A stretch of DNA of 64,000 nucleotides. It comes from Escherichia phage vB_EcoM-Ro121c4YLVW. The stretch lies in sequence record NC_052654.1. One strand, given 5' to 3'. Position numbers and translations under genes: made by a program. The notes under the pieces were generated by a model. The model was not told where the DNA came from and searched no databases. It was given only the letters and a program-made list of their open reading frames with translations. This document shows, piece by piece, positions 33,757 through 48,624 of this stretch (positions are counted from its first letter, which is position 1; every line of letters begins with the position of its first letter).

Positions 33757-33835
33757 TGGAGGCGGGAATCGGATTTGAACCGATGATCTCCAGCATATGA
33801 AACTGGCGAGGACGACCAGACTCCTCTATCCCGCT
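33757..33835 (-). tRNA. tRNA-Met (anticodon CAT)
   Basis: hand-folded cloverleaf; loop TTCATAT; T-arm ATCGG-TTCAAAT-CCGAT; CCA encoded; ends approximate. Confidence 0.7.
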
Positions 33836-33841
33836 ATTATG

Positions 33842-33913
33842 TATCCCGTGCTGGATTCGAACCAGCATCACAATAAGCTGTGGAACTCTTATCCTGTAAG
33901 TCTAACGGGAAAC
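33842..33913 (-). pseudogene. degenerate tRNA-like element
   Basis: canonical T-arm GCTGG-TTCGAAT-CCAGC and pairing acceptor strands but too short; no canonical anticodon arm; no CCA. Confidence 0.3.
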
Positions 33914-33987
33914 TGGTTGTTTCGACAAGAATCGAACTTGTGTCTCACGATTATCAGTCGTGGGTTCTACCATTGAACTACGAAACA
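33914..33987 (-). tRNA. tRNA-Ile (anticodon GAT)
   Basis: acceptor TGTTTCG/CGAAACA; stem CACGA/TCGTG; loop CTGATAA; CCA encoded. Confidence 0.8.
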
Positions 33988-33993
33988 TTTAAT

Positions 33994-34070
33994 TGGTCGG
34001 GACGGAGTGATTCGAACACTCGACCTCTCGCTCCCAAAGCGAGCGCACTACCAAGCTGTGCTACGTCCCG
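33994..34070 (-). tRNA. tRNA-Pro (anticodon TGG)
   Basis: acceptor CGGGACG/CGTCCCG; stem CTCGC/GCGAG; loop TTTGGGA; CCA encoded. Confidence 0.85.
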
Positions 34071-34163
34071 TGATAACATTCTAAAGGTACACCGCAAAAG
34101 AAAGTGTTCGGCGGCTCCTCGTTTTTAACTTCACACTTAAGGTAGTGACTCACCTTTGTTATA

Positions 34164-34239
34164 TGGCTGGTCTGTCTGGATTTGAACCAAACCTACGACA
34201 GTCAAAGTGTCGTGTGCTACCGGACTACACTACAAACCA
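34164..34239 (-). tRNA. tRNA-Gln (anticodon TTG)
   Basis: U1-A72 acceptor; stem CGACA/TGTCG; loop CTTTGAC; CCA encoded. Confidence 0.8.
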
Positions 34240-34337
34240 ATAAATCATTTAATGAAGGGCAACCAGAAGAAGTGTGAGAGAAGGAGAAAACCATGAGTAA
34301 AAGAGAAAGTTTTCTGGCAACCCTTTATTAAATAATT

Positions 34338-34411
34338 TGGAGCGTTCTACGAGGATCGAACTCGTGCCGCCGACTTGGAAGGACGGAATGCTACCGCTAC
34401 ACCAAGAACGC
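34338..34411 (-). tRNA. tRNA-Gly (anticodon TCC)
   Basis: acceptor GCGTTCT/AGAACGC; loop CTTCCAA; T-arm ACGAG-TTCGATC-CTCGT; U73; one stem mismatch. Confidence 0.65.
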
Positions 34412-34422
34412 CATATATATTT

Positions 34423-34452
34423 ACTATACTACATTTTACTATTTGTTGTCAA
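34423..34452 (-). promoter_or_regulatory. sigma70-like promoter inside tRNA cluster
   Basis: minus-sense TTGACA, 18 nt, TATAGT just upstream of tRNA-Gly 5' end. Confidence 0.5.
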
Positions 34453-34725
34453 GACTTTTATTGATTGGGACAGTGACGAGTATCCCGTTGGGTGACTAGC
34501 CCTACGTTCGGTAAGCTAACTTAAAATAATACAAAACCAAAGTCAAATATTATTCTTCGTTGCTGTCGATGGGAGAGCCGCTTCTCATTTTGCCCCATCC
34601 AACCCTACTCCGGTCAAGTTTCGGGTGACTCTTTTTGTGATCAACACAATACTAAGAACACTGTCTTTCGAGCAGACCTTGTGCACAGGATACGACGATC
34701 AATCACAGTGCTCTTAATGTTGTGT

Positions 34726-34800
34726 TGGTGCTCCCACACTGAATCGAACAGAGATCCACGGATTACAAAACCGTTGTAATAGCCATTATACTATAGGAGC
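34726..34800 (-). tRNA. tRNA-Thr (anticodon TGT)
   Basis: acceptor GCTCCTA/TGGGAGC; loop TTTGTAA; CCA encoded. Confidence 0.7.
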
Positions 34801-34806
34801 AATGCT

Positions 34807-34884
34807 GGGACTCGGCAGGATTCGATACCTGCAATTCCAGAAGCCTATTGGCGACTGGGGGGTTTACCTTAACTCTACAAGTCC
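34807..34884 (-). pseudogene. degenerate tRNA-like element
   Basis: pairing acceptor strands and T-arm-like GCAGG-TATCGAAT-CCTGC (8 nt loop) but no anticodon arm; no CCA. Confidence 0.3.
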
Positions 34885-34891
34885 ATAATTC

Positions 34892-34977
34892 TGGCGATGA
34901 GTATAGGATTCGAACCTATATTGTTCTTTCGAACACGGATTAACAGTCCGCCGCTTAAACCATTCAGCCAACTCATC
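34892..34977 (-). tRNA. tRNA with Asn anticodon arm (GTT) and long type-II variable arm
   Basis: 86 nt; acceptor GATGAGT/ACTCATC; arm GCGGA-CTGTTAA-TCCGT; extra arm GTTC-GAAA-GAAC; G73; CCA encoded. Confidence 0.6.
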
Positions 34978-34983
34978 TTAATT

Positions 34984-35071
34984 TGGTGGTGAGTGATGGA
35001 GTCGAACCACCCGAATCGCAATGATAACAGATTTACAGTCTGCCCCGCTACCCCTACGGAATTAACTCACC
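34984..35071 (-). tRNA. tRNA-Tyr (anticodon GTA)
   Basis: 88 nt type II; acceptor GGTGAGT/ACTCACC; loop CTGTAAA; A73; CCA encoded. Confidence 0.8.
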
Positions 35072-35201
35072 TAAATACTAATATTTAAATTCTTTTTAAA
35101 ATAGCCAGTGTTCACACCACTAACTATGAGGTATCGGTAAAGTGGTTACCGCCACTTGCCGAAGATTTACTCTGCTAAAGTAAGCTACATTAAAAAGAAC
35201 T

Positions 35202-35287
35202 TGGCGGTAGATGTAGGACTCGAACCTACACGCCGTTTCCGACTACAGTTTAGCAAACTGTCGTGGCTACCATTTCACCAATCTACC
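35202..35287 (-). tRNA. tRNA-Ser (anticodon GCT)
   Basis: 86 nt type II; acceptor GGTAGAT/ATCTACC; loop TTGCTAA; CCA encoded. Confidence 0.85.
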
Positions 35288-35292
35288 TAATC

Positions 35293-35383
35293 TGGCGGAA
35301 GGAGGGAGAGTCGAACTCCCAAGGCTCTTTCAAGCTCGGCGGTTTTCAAGACCGTTTTCGTCGCCACATCGATTTGCCCTTCC
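35293..35383 (-). tRNA. tRNA-Ser (anticodon TGA)
   Basis: 91 nt type II; loop CTTGAAA; T-arm GGGAG-TTCGACT-CTCCC; CCA encoded. Confidence 0.85.
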
Positions 35384-35391
35384 ATACTTAT

Positions 35392-35421
35392 AATCTAACA
35401 TAAAATAATGTTTGTTGTCAA
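35392..35421 (-). promoter_or_regulatory. sigma70-like promoter inside tRNA cluster
   Basis: minus-sense ATTGACAA then TTAGATT about 17 nt later, just upstream of tRNA-Ser(TGA). Confidence 0.45.
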
Positions 35422-35627
35422 TAGTTTTTTAAAACATTTTACCATGAATGGTGACTCCACCAACCCCCGTTCTCCACGAACGGTGCTCTTCGAGCATTTA
35501 TGTCTTCTAATATAACCGTGGCCTTTGTTTATAATGTCTGACATACTTGCCTCATTCTCTGCCACCATGATCAGTAGTGGGTTCAAATCACTTGAGCTAA
35601 TTCATGTTAAAATGTTCTGGTGTCTTT

Positions 35628-35702
35628 ACAAGGAATCGAACCTTGACTAAGAGTTTAGAAGACTCCTGTGCTATCCATTACACCATAAAGACTTTGGTGG
35701 CC
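35628..35702 (-). tRNA. tRNA-Arg (anticodon TCT)
   Basis: acceptor GTCTTTA/TAAAGAC; loop CTTCTAA; CCA encoded. Confidence 0.8.
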
Positions 35703-35704
35703 CT

Positions 35705-35779
35705 GGCTGGTTTCGATCCAGCTACCTATCGGTTATGAGCCGACAGCTCTCCCATTGAGCTACAGGGCCATAAATGTGG
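35705..35779 (-). tRNA. tRNA with CAT anticodon, tRNA-Ile2 (lysidine) -like
   Basis: acceptor GGCCCTG/CAGGGCC; loop CTCATAA; resembles E. coli tRNA-Ile2 as recalled; CCA encoded. Confidence 0.75.
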
Positions 35780-45290: not shown

Positions 45291-45317
45291 TGTGAGATGT
45301 ATTAAATAGGAGGAAAC

Positions 45318-46196
45318 ATGTTTGTAAAATCTTTTAAATCCGCTCTGCCTATGGTTGTTGGTGACAATGCTTCTGTAGCATCCCTTAACAGCATTACAGA
45401 TATTCCTCTGGAATTTGTAACAGCAGAAGGCTCCCAGTCACACACTATCGGTCTTGTTCGTTTCGAAGATGACTCTAAATTTGTAAAAGAGTTTTCAGAT
45501 CTTGAACTGCTTAATGTAGGTCAATCTGTGAAGAAGGTAGATAAAAAGAAAGTTAAACGTATTCTGAATGAACGTCTAGAAGAAATGCGTCAGGACATGG
45601 AGAGCGAAGGTAAAGAGTTTTATGTCGATAAAGAAGTAGTCAAAGCAATGAAGGAAGATATTGAATTTGCACTATTGCCTGAAACAGAACCTGAAGATTT
45701 CTTTAACTATGTTGTCTTGGATAAAACTACGAATCTTCTTTATGTTCTTAATGGAAGTAAAAAGGTTGCAGAAGAGATTACTTCTTTCCTCCGTTCCGTT
45801 CTGGGGACTTTCCCTTCGGTAGGTTTTAGTGTGCACGAAGAAGCTATTGTAAAAGGTTTTGGTGAATTGCTGGAGAATCACGAAGCAGATCGTATTACTC
45901 TCGGAAATTATATCAAAATGGAGGATAGCGAGGGCGTTGTTGTTTGGAGTAAAGAATCCCTATACGAGTCTAAAGCTGTCGAACTAAAAGAAGATGGTAA
46001 AGATGTTGTTGCAATCGGTCTTGAATATGACGGTGTTGTAGATTTCGTAGTGGATAAAGAGTTTAAACTTTCTAAACTACGTTTTCCGAAATATTTTGCA
46101 GACGAAGAAGGCAGTATTGAAGCTTCAGTCCTTCTGTGCTTCAATGAGATTCGAGGTCTGATGGAAGATTTAACCAAAGCAACAATCCTTAAATAA
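45318..46196 (+). CDS. RdgC-like recombination-associated protein (tentative)
   Basis: 292 aa; segment NLLYVLNGSKKVAEEITSFLRSVLGTFPSVGF resembles RdgC as recalled. Confidence 0.5.
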   Translation: MFVKSFKSALPMVVGDNASVASLNSITDIPLEFVTAEGSQSHTIGLVRFEDDSKFVKEFSDLELLNVGQSVKKVDKKKVKRILNERLEEMRQDMESEGKEFYVDKEVVKAMKEDIEFALLPETEPEDFFNYVVLDKTTNLLYVLNGSKKVAEEITSFLRSVLGTFPSVGFSVHEEAIVKGFGELLENHEADRITLGNYIKMEDSEGVVVWSKESLYESKAVELKEDGKDVVAIGLEYDGVVDFVVDKEFKLSKLRFPKYFADEEGSIEASVLLCFNEIRGLMEDLTKATILK

Positions 46197-46200
46197 GTTC

Positions 46201-46229
46201 TTGACTTGCGGGATTAGTTATGATATTAT
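46201..46229 (+). promoter_or_regulatory. sigma70-like promoter
   Basis: TTGACT, 17 nt, TATTAT; immediately precedes terminator hairpin. Confidence 0.45.
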
Positions 46230-46258
46230 GCCTACCTACTTAATGAGGTAGGCTTTTT
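46230..46258 (+). terminator. intrinsic terminator
   Basis: GCCTACCT-ACTTAATG-AGGTAGGC followed by TTTTT. Confidence 0.55.
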
Positions 46259-46268
46259 AGGAGGCGTT

Positions 46269-46478
46269 ATGAAAAAGATTCTGACAGTCGTTCTTTTAGC
46301 TTTTAGTTTCACAGTAGCAGCAGGTCAAATTACTTTAATCTTGTCTGATTCTGAAGTTAATGGCAATACAAAATATTGCTACTATTCTAACGCTAACCAA
46401 GATGAAGTTATAGCAATCCCGAAAAGTCGTCAATGTCCGTATACTAAAACATTCTCAACAGAGGATGACGATGAATAA
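46269..46478 (+). CDS. small secreted/lipoprotein-like protein
   Basis: 69 aa with signal peptide MKKILTVVLLAFSFTVAAG; SD AGGAGG. Confidence 0.55.
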   Translation: MKKILTVVLLAFSFTVAAGQITLILSDSEVNGNTKYCYYSNANQDEVIAIPKSRQCPYTKTFSTEDDDE

Positions 46479-46919
46479 TTAGGGGGAAATATTAGCGGTT
46501 ATATTTTAATTAAACCTGAAGATCTTCATTTATATGTCAACGAAGAAACAATAGCTGCAATTGATTATGATCAGATCGCTTTCCAAGCAGCGTCTGCATT
46601 AGAGAAAAGAACAATCATTGCGAAGCACATCCCTTCAGGTGCTCAAAAGGAATTTAAAAATAAGACAGAGTTTTGGGGTAAAAGCAAGACTAAAATTGGA
46701 GGTTGGCTAGGAGATACAAATGCAGAAAGAGCCTCCAAAAACAAACGTCCCTTCACAAAGGAAGAGTTCGAAATCATTGATAAGCAATACCCGCCAGAAG
46801 ATATCGGACACACCTTCCAAGCAGCTAAAACAAAAGTCTTAGGTATTCTAAAACATCTACGTTTAGAAAAATATTGCGGAGTTATTGGCGTAGGAAAAAC
46901 TTTCAGACACGCCTTCAAA

Positions 46920-47609
46920 ATGCCTGTAGAATATAAGTCTGAACGATTAGATATCAAACCACTTCAGCTTTCAGAAACCAAAGATTATCTTGTGGAGTTC
47001 CACAATGGTGATGTTGTTACTGTAATAGAGGCTGATGATGAGTTAGAGAAGTATGGTTTCCAAGGTTATAAAGATTATAAAAGGACGGGTAAATTTTCTT
47101 ATATCGTAGTGTCTATAGATAAAGATAGTTTACATACTCCTAGTATCCTTTTTAATTTCTACAAAGAGGATGGAGTATTTAAAAATCCAGATATAATTCT
47201 TATTGACGAGTCTATTGGCGATATATGGATCGTAGATAAAGGTAAAAAGAAAGAAGTTAAAGGTTGGGGCAGTTACTGGTTAGCATATCAGATGCTAATG
47301 GGAGATAAAACAGATAGTATCCGACCTTATCAAGATTTTGATATTAAGTTCGGAGATATTACTTGTTTTAATCTTCTTTCAGCTTGTAAAACTCAAGCAG
47401 AACTTTTCCAAACAGTTAAAGATACTTACTACTCATGGTTCCCAGATGGTGTTAATTTTACTTCTTGGGATGGAGAAGAAGTCCATATGACAACAGATGA
47501 ATGGATAGAAACAATTTTCCAGTTGGTATACATGAAACGCTGGGATAATGACGATACAACATTTGAGAGTATGCTTCAGTCATACATCTCGCAACAGGAG
47601 GCAGAGTGA
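46920..47609 (+). CDS. hypothetical protein; coding frame is open upstream to 46479 without canonical start
   Basis: 229 aa from first ATG; same frame has 147 further sense codons back to TAA stop of upstream gene. Confidence 0.5.
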   Translation: MPVEYKSERLDIKPLQLSETKDYLVEFHNGDVVTVIEADDELEKYGFQGYKDYKRTGKFSYIVVSIDKDSLHTPSILFNFYKEDGVFKNPDIILIDESIGDIWIVDKGKKKEVKGWGSYWLAYQMLMGDKTDSIRPYQDFDIKFGDITCFNLLSACKTQAELFQTVKDTYYSWFPDGVNFTSWDGEEVHMTTDEWIETIFQLVYMKRWDNDDTTFESMLQSYISQQEAE

Positions 47610-48565
47610 GCAGATTAACAGAAGAGCAGAAAGCAGATATCCTTAGTATGAGTGCAGAGGGTATGTCTTCTCGAAATATTGCAGCAATTGTTTTAGGTAG
47701 CCCAACAAGAAAAAGCACAGTAAATGATTTCCTTGCACGTTTCAGTGGAAGTAAACAAGAACCCGTTAAAAAGAAACAACCAGTTATTAAAATTATTGAT
47801 GTTGAAACTGCACCAGAGATTGCATATACTTTCCGTCGATTCAAAGCCTTCATTTCTCCAGACCAGGTGATTCGCAGAGGTTATTTGTTATCCTACTCTT
47901 CTGCTGACCTGTATACTGGTGAAGTGGAAGGTAAGAACTTGTCTTCTTATCCTCTTTTCGATATTGATCATACAGATGATTGGGAGCTTTGCCAAGATCT
48001 TTGGAACCTTCTGAATGAGGCAGATGTAGTTGTGGCACACAACGGATATAAGTTTGACCGTGCATACATTAACCAACGATTTGCATATCACGATATGGCT
48101 CCTCCTTCTAATTATGTAGTCGTTGATACATTGAAGGCAGCTAAGAAACAATTTGCACTTCCTTCCAACTCCCTTAAAGAAATGGGAGCATATTTCGAAA
48201 CAGAAAGTGAAAAACTGGATAACGAGGGGTTCCCTTTATGGAAAGCATGTTGTGAAGGTGATCGTGATGCTTTTGAACGTATGCAGATTTACAATGATGG
48301 CGATGTTGTTTCACTCCGTGATTTGTATATGAAAATCCTTCCGTGGATTCCACAGCATCCTAACTTATCCGCTTATTACCCAGATGAGAAAGTCCGTTGT
48401 TCTCGTTGCGGCAGTGATCATGTTCACGTTGTTACTGGTAAGCAATACCACACTGCGGTAAGTTCTTTCGATATCATTCGTTGTGAATCTTGTGGAGGTT
48501 TGTCACGTAGTAGAGCAAACACCAGATCCAAAGATAAACGAGCAGCAACTATTATTGGAATCTAA
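47606..48565 (+). CDS. DEDDh 3'-5' exonuclease with N-terminal HTH and C-terminal zinc ribbon
   Basis: Exo motifs IDVETAP, HNGYKFDRAYI, YNDGD; C-terminal CSRCG...CESCG; GTG start with SD AGGAGG. Confidence 0.65.
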   Translation: MSRLTEEQKADILSMSAEGMSSRNIAAIVLGSPTRKSTVNDFLARFSGSKQEPVKKKQPVIKIIDVETAPEIAYTFRRFKAFISPDQVIRRGYLLSYSSADLYTGEVEGKNLSSYPLFDIDHTDDWELCQDLWNLLNEADVVVAHNGYKFDRAYINQRFAYHDMAPPSNYVVVDTLKAAKKQFALPSNSLKEMGAYFETESEKLDNEGFPLWKACCEGDRDAFERMQIYNDGDVVSLRDLYMKILPWIPQHPNLSAYYPDEKVRCSRCGSDHVHVVTGKQYHTAVSSFDIIRCESCGGLSRSRANTRSKDKRAATIIGI

Positions 48566-48571
48566 TAATCA

Positions 48572-48594
48572 GGGAGCTTATTGCTCCCTTTTTT
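48572..48594 (+). terminator. intrinsic terminator
   Basis: GGGAGC-TTATT-GCTCCC followed by TTTTTT. Confidence 0.6.
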
Positions 48595-48595
48595 A

Positions 48596-48624
48596 TTGAC
48601 AAAAATTTGATATTAGTGTATACT
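48596..48624 (+). promoter_or_regulatory. sigma70-like promoter
   Basis: TTGACA, 17 nt, TATACT. Confidence 0.6.

Follow-up and report, generated by a model that had tools for sequence, protein, structure and literature searches.

IF3 discriminates against AUU, AUC, AUA and CUG starts in Escherichia coli. The same four codons make up the second tier of E. coli initiators, yielding 1-2% of the AUG level in reporters, and infC and pcnB are the only confirmed natural AUU starts in this bacterium (bioRxiv 10.1101/063800). In other contexts, AUU-class initiation reaches 5-7.5%, and the AUU or AUC start of infC is the target of IF3 autoregulation (PMC5499595). Here, we describe a phage nuclease gene that appears to begin in the same manner. 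Like infC and pcnB, it would have a near-cognate AUU (AUC in some infC orthologues) as its sole start behind a functional Shine-Dalgarno (SD) sequence; the non-canonical start is phylogenetically conserved, and its expected output is low and IF3-sensitive. Unlike those two genes, it is a nuclease gene of a virulent phage, its AUU start is predicted from sequence, and its clade uses AUU, AUC, AUA and CUG. In addition, no feedback loop such as that of infC is implied for the phage nuclease. By analogy, the start would belong to the infC/pcnB kind of non-canonical initiation and would call for no new mechanism. What is new here is the conservation of such a start across a whole clade, together with the interchange among all four second-tier initiator codons.

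The window, i.e., the whole stretch of 64,000 nucleotides that was analyzed (NC_052654.1, Escherichia phage vB_EcoM-Ro121c4YLVW), comes from a phAPEC8-like coliphage of the genus Phapecoctavirus, subfamily Stephanstirmvirinae, and 63 GenBank phages match its positions 45300-48600 at an identity of at least 95%. The initial annotation had drawn attention to a coding-like frame at 46479-46919 that lacks a canonical start and directly follows the stop of a small upstream gene. A codon-by-codon check bore out this description, as the frame consists of 147 sense codons without a stop, ATG, GTG or TTG. Reading and translation of the sequence likewise placed the TAA of the upstream gene in frame both with that gene and with ATG 46920, and found the AGGGGGA motif just downstream of it, with ATT 46491 in frame. 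Judged from base composition, the chance of 147 stop-free codons is ~5e-5, and that of 147 codons without a canonical start is ~6e-4. In a survey of every open frame of 120 codons or more across the 64-kb window, the longest distance from a stop to the first canonical start in a genuine gene was the 147 codons found here, compared with 19 codons or fewer in all other real genes; the other frames flagged in the survey were antisense shadows.

The region at 46920-47609 had been regarded as a gene of its own. The orthologue comparison proposed as a check was run and gave a different picture: the frame upstream of 46920 is homologous to the N-termini of full-length exonucleases, and 46920-47609 represents the C-terminal 229 codons of gene 46491-47609. 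A tblastn search with the whole 376-codon frame matched 1,211 phage records, which carry the labels exonuclease, exodeoxyribonuclease or RNase H, and 899 of them cover at least 80% of the query with the N-terminal part included. PHROG 107 ('exonuclease') spans residues 10-367 of the protein (E=1e-55) and is also matched by the 143-residue N-terminal piece alone (E=5e-7). Pfam gave no match for the window protein at E<=0.01, and NCBIfam and PDB sequence searches with it gave none either; precomputed matches to PF02739 (5'-3' exonuclease N-terminal domain) are present on the homologues P0035 (50% identity) and several of P0073-P0084. The predicted structure shows the fold of the FEN / 5'-3' exonuclease superfamily, a PIN-like nuclease domain with an H3TH. 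The comparison list comprises a plastid 5'-3' exonuclease (listed value, 16.6), the M. smegmatis flap endonuclease (15.0), E. coli ExoIX (14.6), the T5 5'-exonuclease (14.3) and T4 RNase H (13.8), and Foldseek was consistent with it. At the sequence level, T5 D15, T4 RNase H and ExoIX are only 12-16% identical to the window protein, which is ~100 residues longer than these enzymes through insertions; their genes use ordinary AUG starts. Full-length orthologues with 37-42% identity are found in the Vequintavirinae, namely, rV5 ORF94 ('putative exodeoxyribonuclease') and the certrevirus (PBES02) exonuclease.

Conservation was read from two alignments, of 31 and 43 sequences, which reach down to 30% identity. 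No variation is seen at D25, R139, Y148, K149, E180, D182, D183, D210, K211, D212, D272 and D275, and very little at D27 and E38, with D27 kept in at least 90% of the sequences. D25, D27 and E38 are all encoded within the 'startless' stretch. The conserved carboxylates (D25, E180, D182, D183, D210, D212, D272 and D275) would provide for two-metal FEN catalysis, and the alignments are consistent with Asp25 and Asp27 being the first acidic cluster of the FEN active site. Compared with five relatives, the N-terminal 143 codons show a pN of 0.16-0.25 and a saturated pS of 0.67-0.82; with a pN/pS of ~0.2-0.35, purifying selection acts on these codons. All 125 isolates that hold the junction between the upstream gene and the nuclease frame have an unbroken reading frame. 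Because of the homology, the invariant residues and the low pN against a saturated pS, the 147 codons are best read as the translated and selected N-terminal part of a single FEN-family nuclease gene, and sequence and structural model together point to its product as a putative divergent member of the FEN / 5'-3' exonuclease superfamily. The features of the locus are collected in the table.

Table. Features of the nuclease locus and related elements (positions in the window)
Feature	Position	Strand	Basis or remark
tRNA(CAU), 79 nt, initiator-derived look	33757-33835	-	A1xC72, G2:C71, C3:G70, A11:U24, T-loop TTCAAAT
Second CAU tRNA	35695-35769	-	Acceptor stem GGCCC
Promoter-like TTGACT-17-TATTAT with TG extension	46201-46229	+	
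Terminator-like hairpin followed by TTTTT	46230-46253	+	Directly 3' of the promoter-like site; abuts the SD of the 69-codon gene
Upstream 69-codon ORF, signal-peptide-like N-terminus	46269..46478	+	PHROG 4641 (function unknown), E=7e-27; signal peptide annotated in phi92
TAA stop of the 69-codon ORF, followed by T	46476..46478	+	Sequence reading; 12 nt before ATT
SD AGGGGGA	46481..46487	+	G5 run; -9.3 kcal/mol with the 16S tail; GGAGG-type SD at the same place in relatives
Predicted ATT initiation codon of the nuclease gene	46491..46493	+	4 nt after the G-run; aligned codons; start of the ESCO13 CDS
Complete CDS, putative FEN-family 5'-3' exonuclease / flap endonuclease	46491..47609	+	372 codons + TGA
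Codons Asp25-Tyr26-Asp27	46563..46571	+	Alignments; in the model, where the first core beta-strand (residues 16-25) ends
Out-of-frame 40-codon ORF, regarded as spurious	46720..46842	+	Hypothetical protein in phAPEC8 and vB_Ec-G1; AGGAG 6 nt upstream
Internal Met144 codon	46920..46922	+	Used by most annotations as start (229-aa product); no SD; Leu in many homologues
Downstream gene (3'-5' exonuclease / DNA polymerase exonuclease subunit in relatives)	47606..48565	+	Own GGAGG, then 4 nt

A canonical-codon start is impossible for the full-length product because no ATG, GTG or TTG lies upstream of the invariant Asp25. The SD duplex at 46481-46487 is stronger than the window mean (-7.8 kcal/mol), and the arrangement AGGGGGA-AAT-ATT sets the ATT at the modal spacing of the window, 4 nt from the G-run, which is shared by 8 of its 17 GGAGG-type sites. 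As expected of AUU-class initiation, no canonical start stands 5' of the functionally essential residues, a near-cognate codon lies at a functional SD distance, and a start codon occupies the orthologous position in relatives. The last point was obtained from junction DNA gathered from GenBank relatives, IMG/VR, JGI/ENA metagenomes and Logan contigs, which gave a census set of 28 sequences with 24 distinct junctions and protein identities of 50-100%. In every one of the 28, a GGAGG-type SD is followed after 3-5 nt by a codon aligned with ATT 46491, and the SD duplex energies range from -9 to -13 kcal/mol, with two exceptions. The aligned codon is ATC in 10 junction types (including phiWec179 and L051, the latter 86% identical to the window), ATT in 8 (including the phAPEC8 and phi92 types), ATA in 5 (including L019, L034 and L049) and CTG in 1 (L020); ATG, GTG or TTG is found in none. 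Half of the relatives (14 of 28) have no canonical codon at all before the invariant Asp. In two members for which gene callers had chosen an ATG start (L048 and L049), the called ATG is without an SD, and an SD with ATT or ATA stands nine codons upstream. On a neighbour-joining protein tree, ATT appears to be the ancestral codon of the clade, with at least four origins of ATA, at least two or three of ATC and one of CTG.

The interchange of ATT, ATC and ATA alone is no proof of start status, because all three are synonymous Ile codons. What supports a start codon here is the spacing from the SD, the stops that flank the codon and the starts used by the outgroups. In four lineages (L018, L030, L031 and L033), an in-frame TAA abuts the ATC on its 5' side (TAGGAGGAGTAA ATC...), and the start therefore does not lie further upstream. 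The outgroups, unlike the window, use canonical codons, and in both, the start codon stands at the aligned position behind an SD: rV5 has TTG (GGAGGGTCT TTG AGT), and the certreviruses (PBES02 and L021-L024) have ATG (GAGGAGTGAGTA ATG GGT TAT). The G-run of the nuclease SD (46482-46486) is G5 in most phages, G6 in vB_EcoM_01 and G7 in BI-EHEC, and the sequence 3' of the run is unchanged in the G6 and G7 isolates (L054 and L055). Since non-triplet indels are tolerated in this run, the stretch from the TAA to the ATT is non-coding. The start is confined to the interval between the G-run and the conserved N-terminus. The G6 and G7 runs themselves are either real variants tuning SD strength or homopolymer sequencing errors.

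Overall, of the explanations put forward in the initial annotation, non-canonical initiation at the ATT is the one favoured by the homology, the start census of 28 relatives, the in-frame stops just 5' of the aligned codon and the SD spacing. We put at roughly 85% the probability of the reading suggested by these sequence comparisons, namely, that the nuclease is translated from the rare ATT 46491 as one 372-codon gene, with the weak start most likely limiting its dosage. In the proposed mechanism, the AGGGGGA SD would position the 30S subunit on AUU 46491, 4 nt downstream, where the initiator fMet-tRNA would pair with a third-position mismatch; ribosomes ending at the upstream UAA, 12 nt away, may feed the same site. 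The weak start would most likely hold the nuclease at a low and possibly IF3-sensitive dosage. We infer this role because the clade has kept four weak codons, and never ATG, GTG or TTG, while synonymous sites elsewhere are saturated. Approximately eight independent start-codon changes were counted, with none tallied to G at position 3, an outcome expected in ~4% of cases by chance if that position were unconstrained; the sequences thus modestly favour selection for a weak start. Dosage control of a potentially harmful nuclease is a plausible reason for such selection. Escape from host systems that sense phage exonucleases would be a more speculative one; a passage in one report mentions type I-A retrons as sensing phage exonucleases (PMC12916289). 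The clade lends itself to comparative and experimental work on why weak starts persist, with nuclease toxicity, replisome stoichiometry, IF3-dependent timing and the avoidance of nuclease-sensing host defences as candidate reasons.

Termination-reinitiation could instead be the main route to the nuclease. Ribosomes ending at UAA 46476-78 would then restart at the AUU, and the nuclease would be slaved to the 69-codon ORF with little SD-driven 30S binding. In nearly all relatives, an upstream stop indeed precedes the start by 8-12 nt and touches or overlaps the SD (TAGGAGG..., TAATAGGGGGA), which in most of them places it within the few nucleotides expected for translational coupling, and folding of the initiation region gave no significant regulatory mRNA structure around the start that would need unfolding (z = -0.8). 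However, the strength and conservation of the SD speak for direct recruitment of the 30S subunit. Additionally, the nearest in-frame stop is 10-13 codons upstream in two relatives (L045 and L041), and in L048, the upstream neighbour is a methyltransferase gene, yet the SD and ATT are still kept. As the main route, reinitiation is therefore conceivable but doubtful; it is compatible with initiation at the ATT and fits beside that explanation rather than being a true alternative to it.

It is distinctly unlikely that the start serves as a regulatory device, with the nuclease gated by the state of host initiation, for example through how available or faithful IF3 is, or by a phage factor that makes start selection less strict. 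If this were true, AUU, AUC, AUA and CUG starts would be efficient only at a particular stage of infection. One candidate for a start-relaxing factor under such gating would be the phage tRNA(CAU) at 33757-33835, which is conserved in Stephanstirmvirinae. The anticodon stem of this tRNA (CCAGU/GCUGG) is without the run of three G:C pairs by which bacterial initiator tRNAs are recognized. No specific link of the initiator-like tRNA to the ATT start was found, and the tRNA also occurs outside the clade, among others in Erwinia and Felix-O1-like phages.

Initiation at another near-cognate codon, ATT 46503 or ATT 46509, is very unlikely. Both codons are in frame, and relatives conserve the Ile residues of 'GYILI'. 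However, they stand 16-22 nt from the SD compared with the 4-nt mode, the SD energy in the window upstream of them is weak, and the rV5 TTG-AGT and the certrevirus ATG align with 46491-46496 and not with later codons.

The view that translation yields nothing but a 229-aa product from ATG 46920, with the upstream 147 codons being an untranslated remnant, has very little to recommend it beyond the fact that this ATG is the first canonical start and is the one used by most GenBank records and gene callers. ATG 46920 has an SD energy of +0.4 kcal/mol, and Met144 is not a fixed residue of the family (see the table). The upstream part is under purifying selection and homologous to the N-termini of ~900 full-length homologues, and, judged from the structural model, the 229-aa product would miss at least four core beta-strands and the invariant Asp25.

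Readthrough of TAA 46476-78, which would fuse the signal-peptide protein to the nuclease, had also been raised as a possibility; we give it hardly any credence. The two frames coincide in the window with a single TAA between them, and a database protein of 444 aa (P0005) resembles such a fusion. However, the upstream gene lies in a different frame in phi92 and Antha, tandem stops are present in phiWec179, L019 and L020, a second in-frame stop stands right before the start in L018, L030, L031 and L033, and the isolates with G6 and G7, i.e., with runs altered by 1-2 nt, lose the frame relation. Neither a frame kept across relatives nor a single leaky stop, as programmed readthrough would entail, was thus found. 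In E. coli, UAA terminates strongly when the next base is U. Because the shared frame is peculiar to the phAPEC8 type, is not kept in phi92 and Antha and is lost with the G6 and G7 runs, the in-frame arrangement of the 69-codon ORF and the nuclease is incidental. The P0005 protein had looked as though the upstream ORF and the nuclease were naturally fused in it, but this was rejected because the gene caller had decoded a junction TAG in its DNA as Gln. A 379-aa protein (P0092) was rejected as a genuine long version for a similar artefact with one extra G. More generally, public protein collections include artefactual long versions of the gene (P0005 and P0092; Logan SRR30397360 contig L026), in which TAG on short phage contigs was read as Gln, apparently under genetic code 15, so that false fusions with the upstream ORF result.

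A pseudogene with a lost start, or a start missing through sequencing error, would account for the lack of a canonical start in frame but is practically negligible as an explanation, since 125 phages sequenced independently share the junction (63 phapecoctaviruses with an identical or near-identical version, and 62 more distant isolates with the same architecture), metagenomes contain this architecture as well, and the frame shows neither relaxed selection nor breakage, its pN/pS being low and its invariant catalytic residues kept.

One GenBank/RefSeq record, that of ESCO13, already annotates the ATT start with an RBS feature, a choice its curators made independently and one that supports the start proposed here; its ESCO13_00118 (AQM50955.1 / YP_009786567.1), a 'putative exonuclease' of 372 aa, is identical to the window protein and has the same ATT start. 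The ESCO13 genome announcement does not mention this start (PMC5374246), and no published description of the clade's ATT-started exonuclease was found in the searchable literature. The truncated 229-aa version is called on 385 contigs, compared with the one full-length record. The other records that were inspected start at Met144 or at an unsupported downstream GTG or TTG, or contain an extra spurious 40-codon ORF, and the phi92 record carries the remark 'No RBS identified; weak Prodigal statistics'. We considered the 40-codon ORF at 46720-46842 as an overlapping gene and rejected it, as there are stops and no ATG in phi92, phiWec179, L017, L018, L026 and L019; it is probably a call that fills an apparent gap. 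In the annotation of almost all phAPEC8/phi92-type genomes, an essential-looking replication/repair nuclease is thus either absent or cut to 60% of its length, and this mis-annotation affects comparative genomics and the safety annotation of phages developed for therapy. Among the near-identical (99%) or close records, some are labelled as phages of Acinetobacter (vB_AbaM_ABPW7), Campylobacter (A145, A150 and A110a), Klebsiella (ZCKP1), Pseudomonas (PsgM04F) and Serratia; either the claimed host ranges are unusually broad, or the phages were mislabelled or are contaminants.

The surroundings of the gene have several features of their own. The TGA of the nuclease overlaps the GTG start of the downstream gene as GTGA (47606-47609), and from this arrangement, the nuclease and downstream 3'-5' exonuclease genes are probably translationally coupled. 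Upstream of the 69-codon ORF, the promoter-like site is followed by the terminator-like hairpin (GCCTACCT...AGGTAGGC). A transcript from this putative promoter would begin inside the hairpin, and the arrangement could terminate transcripts arriving from upstream while those started at the promoter escape. On the other strand, the two CAU tRNAs belong to a cluster of 10 tRNAs (33757-35769, minus strand), namely, Met/initiator-like, Ile-GAU, Pro, Gln, Gly, Thr, Asn, Ser, Arg-UCU and the second CAU. The GGCCC acceptor stem of the last presumably marks a resemblance to E. coli tRNA-Ile2, the AUA reader that arises through lysidine modification. The initiator-like member is entered as 'tRNA-Pseudo-CAT' in one record, and a relative in an Erwinia phage is annotated as tRNA-fMet.
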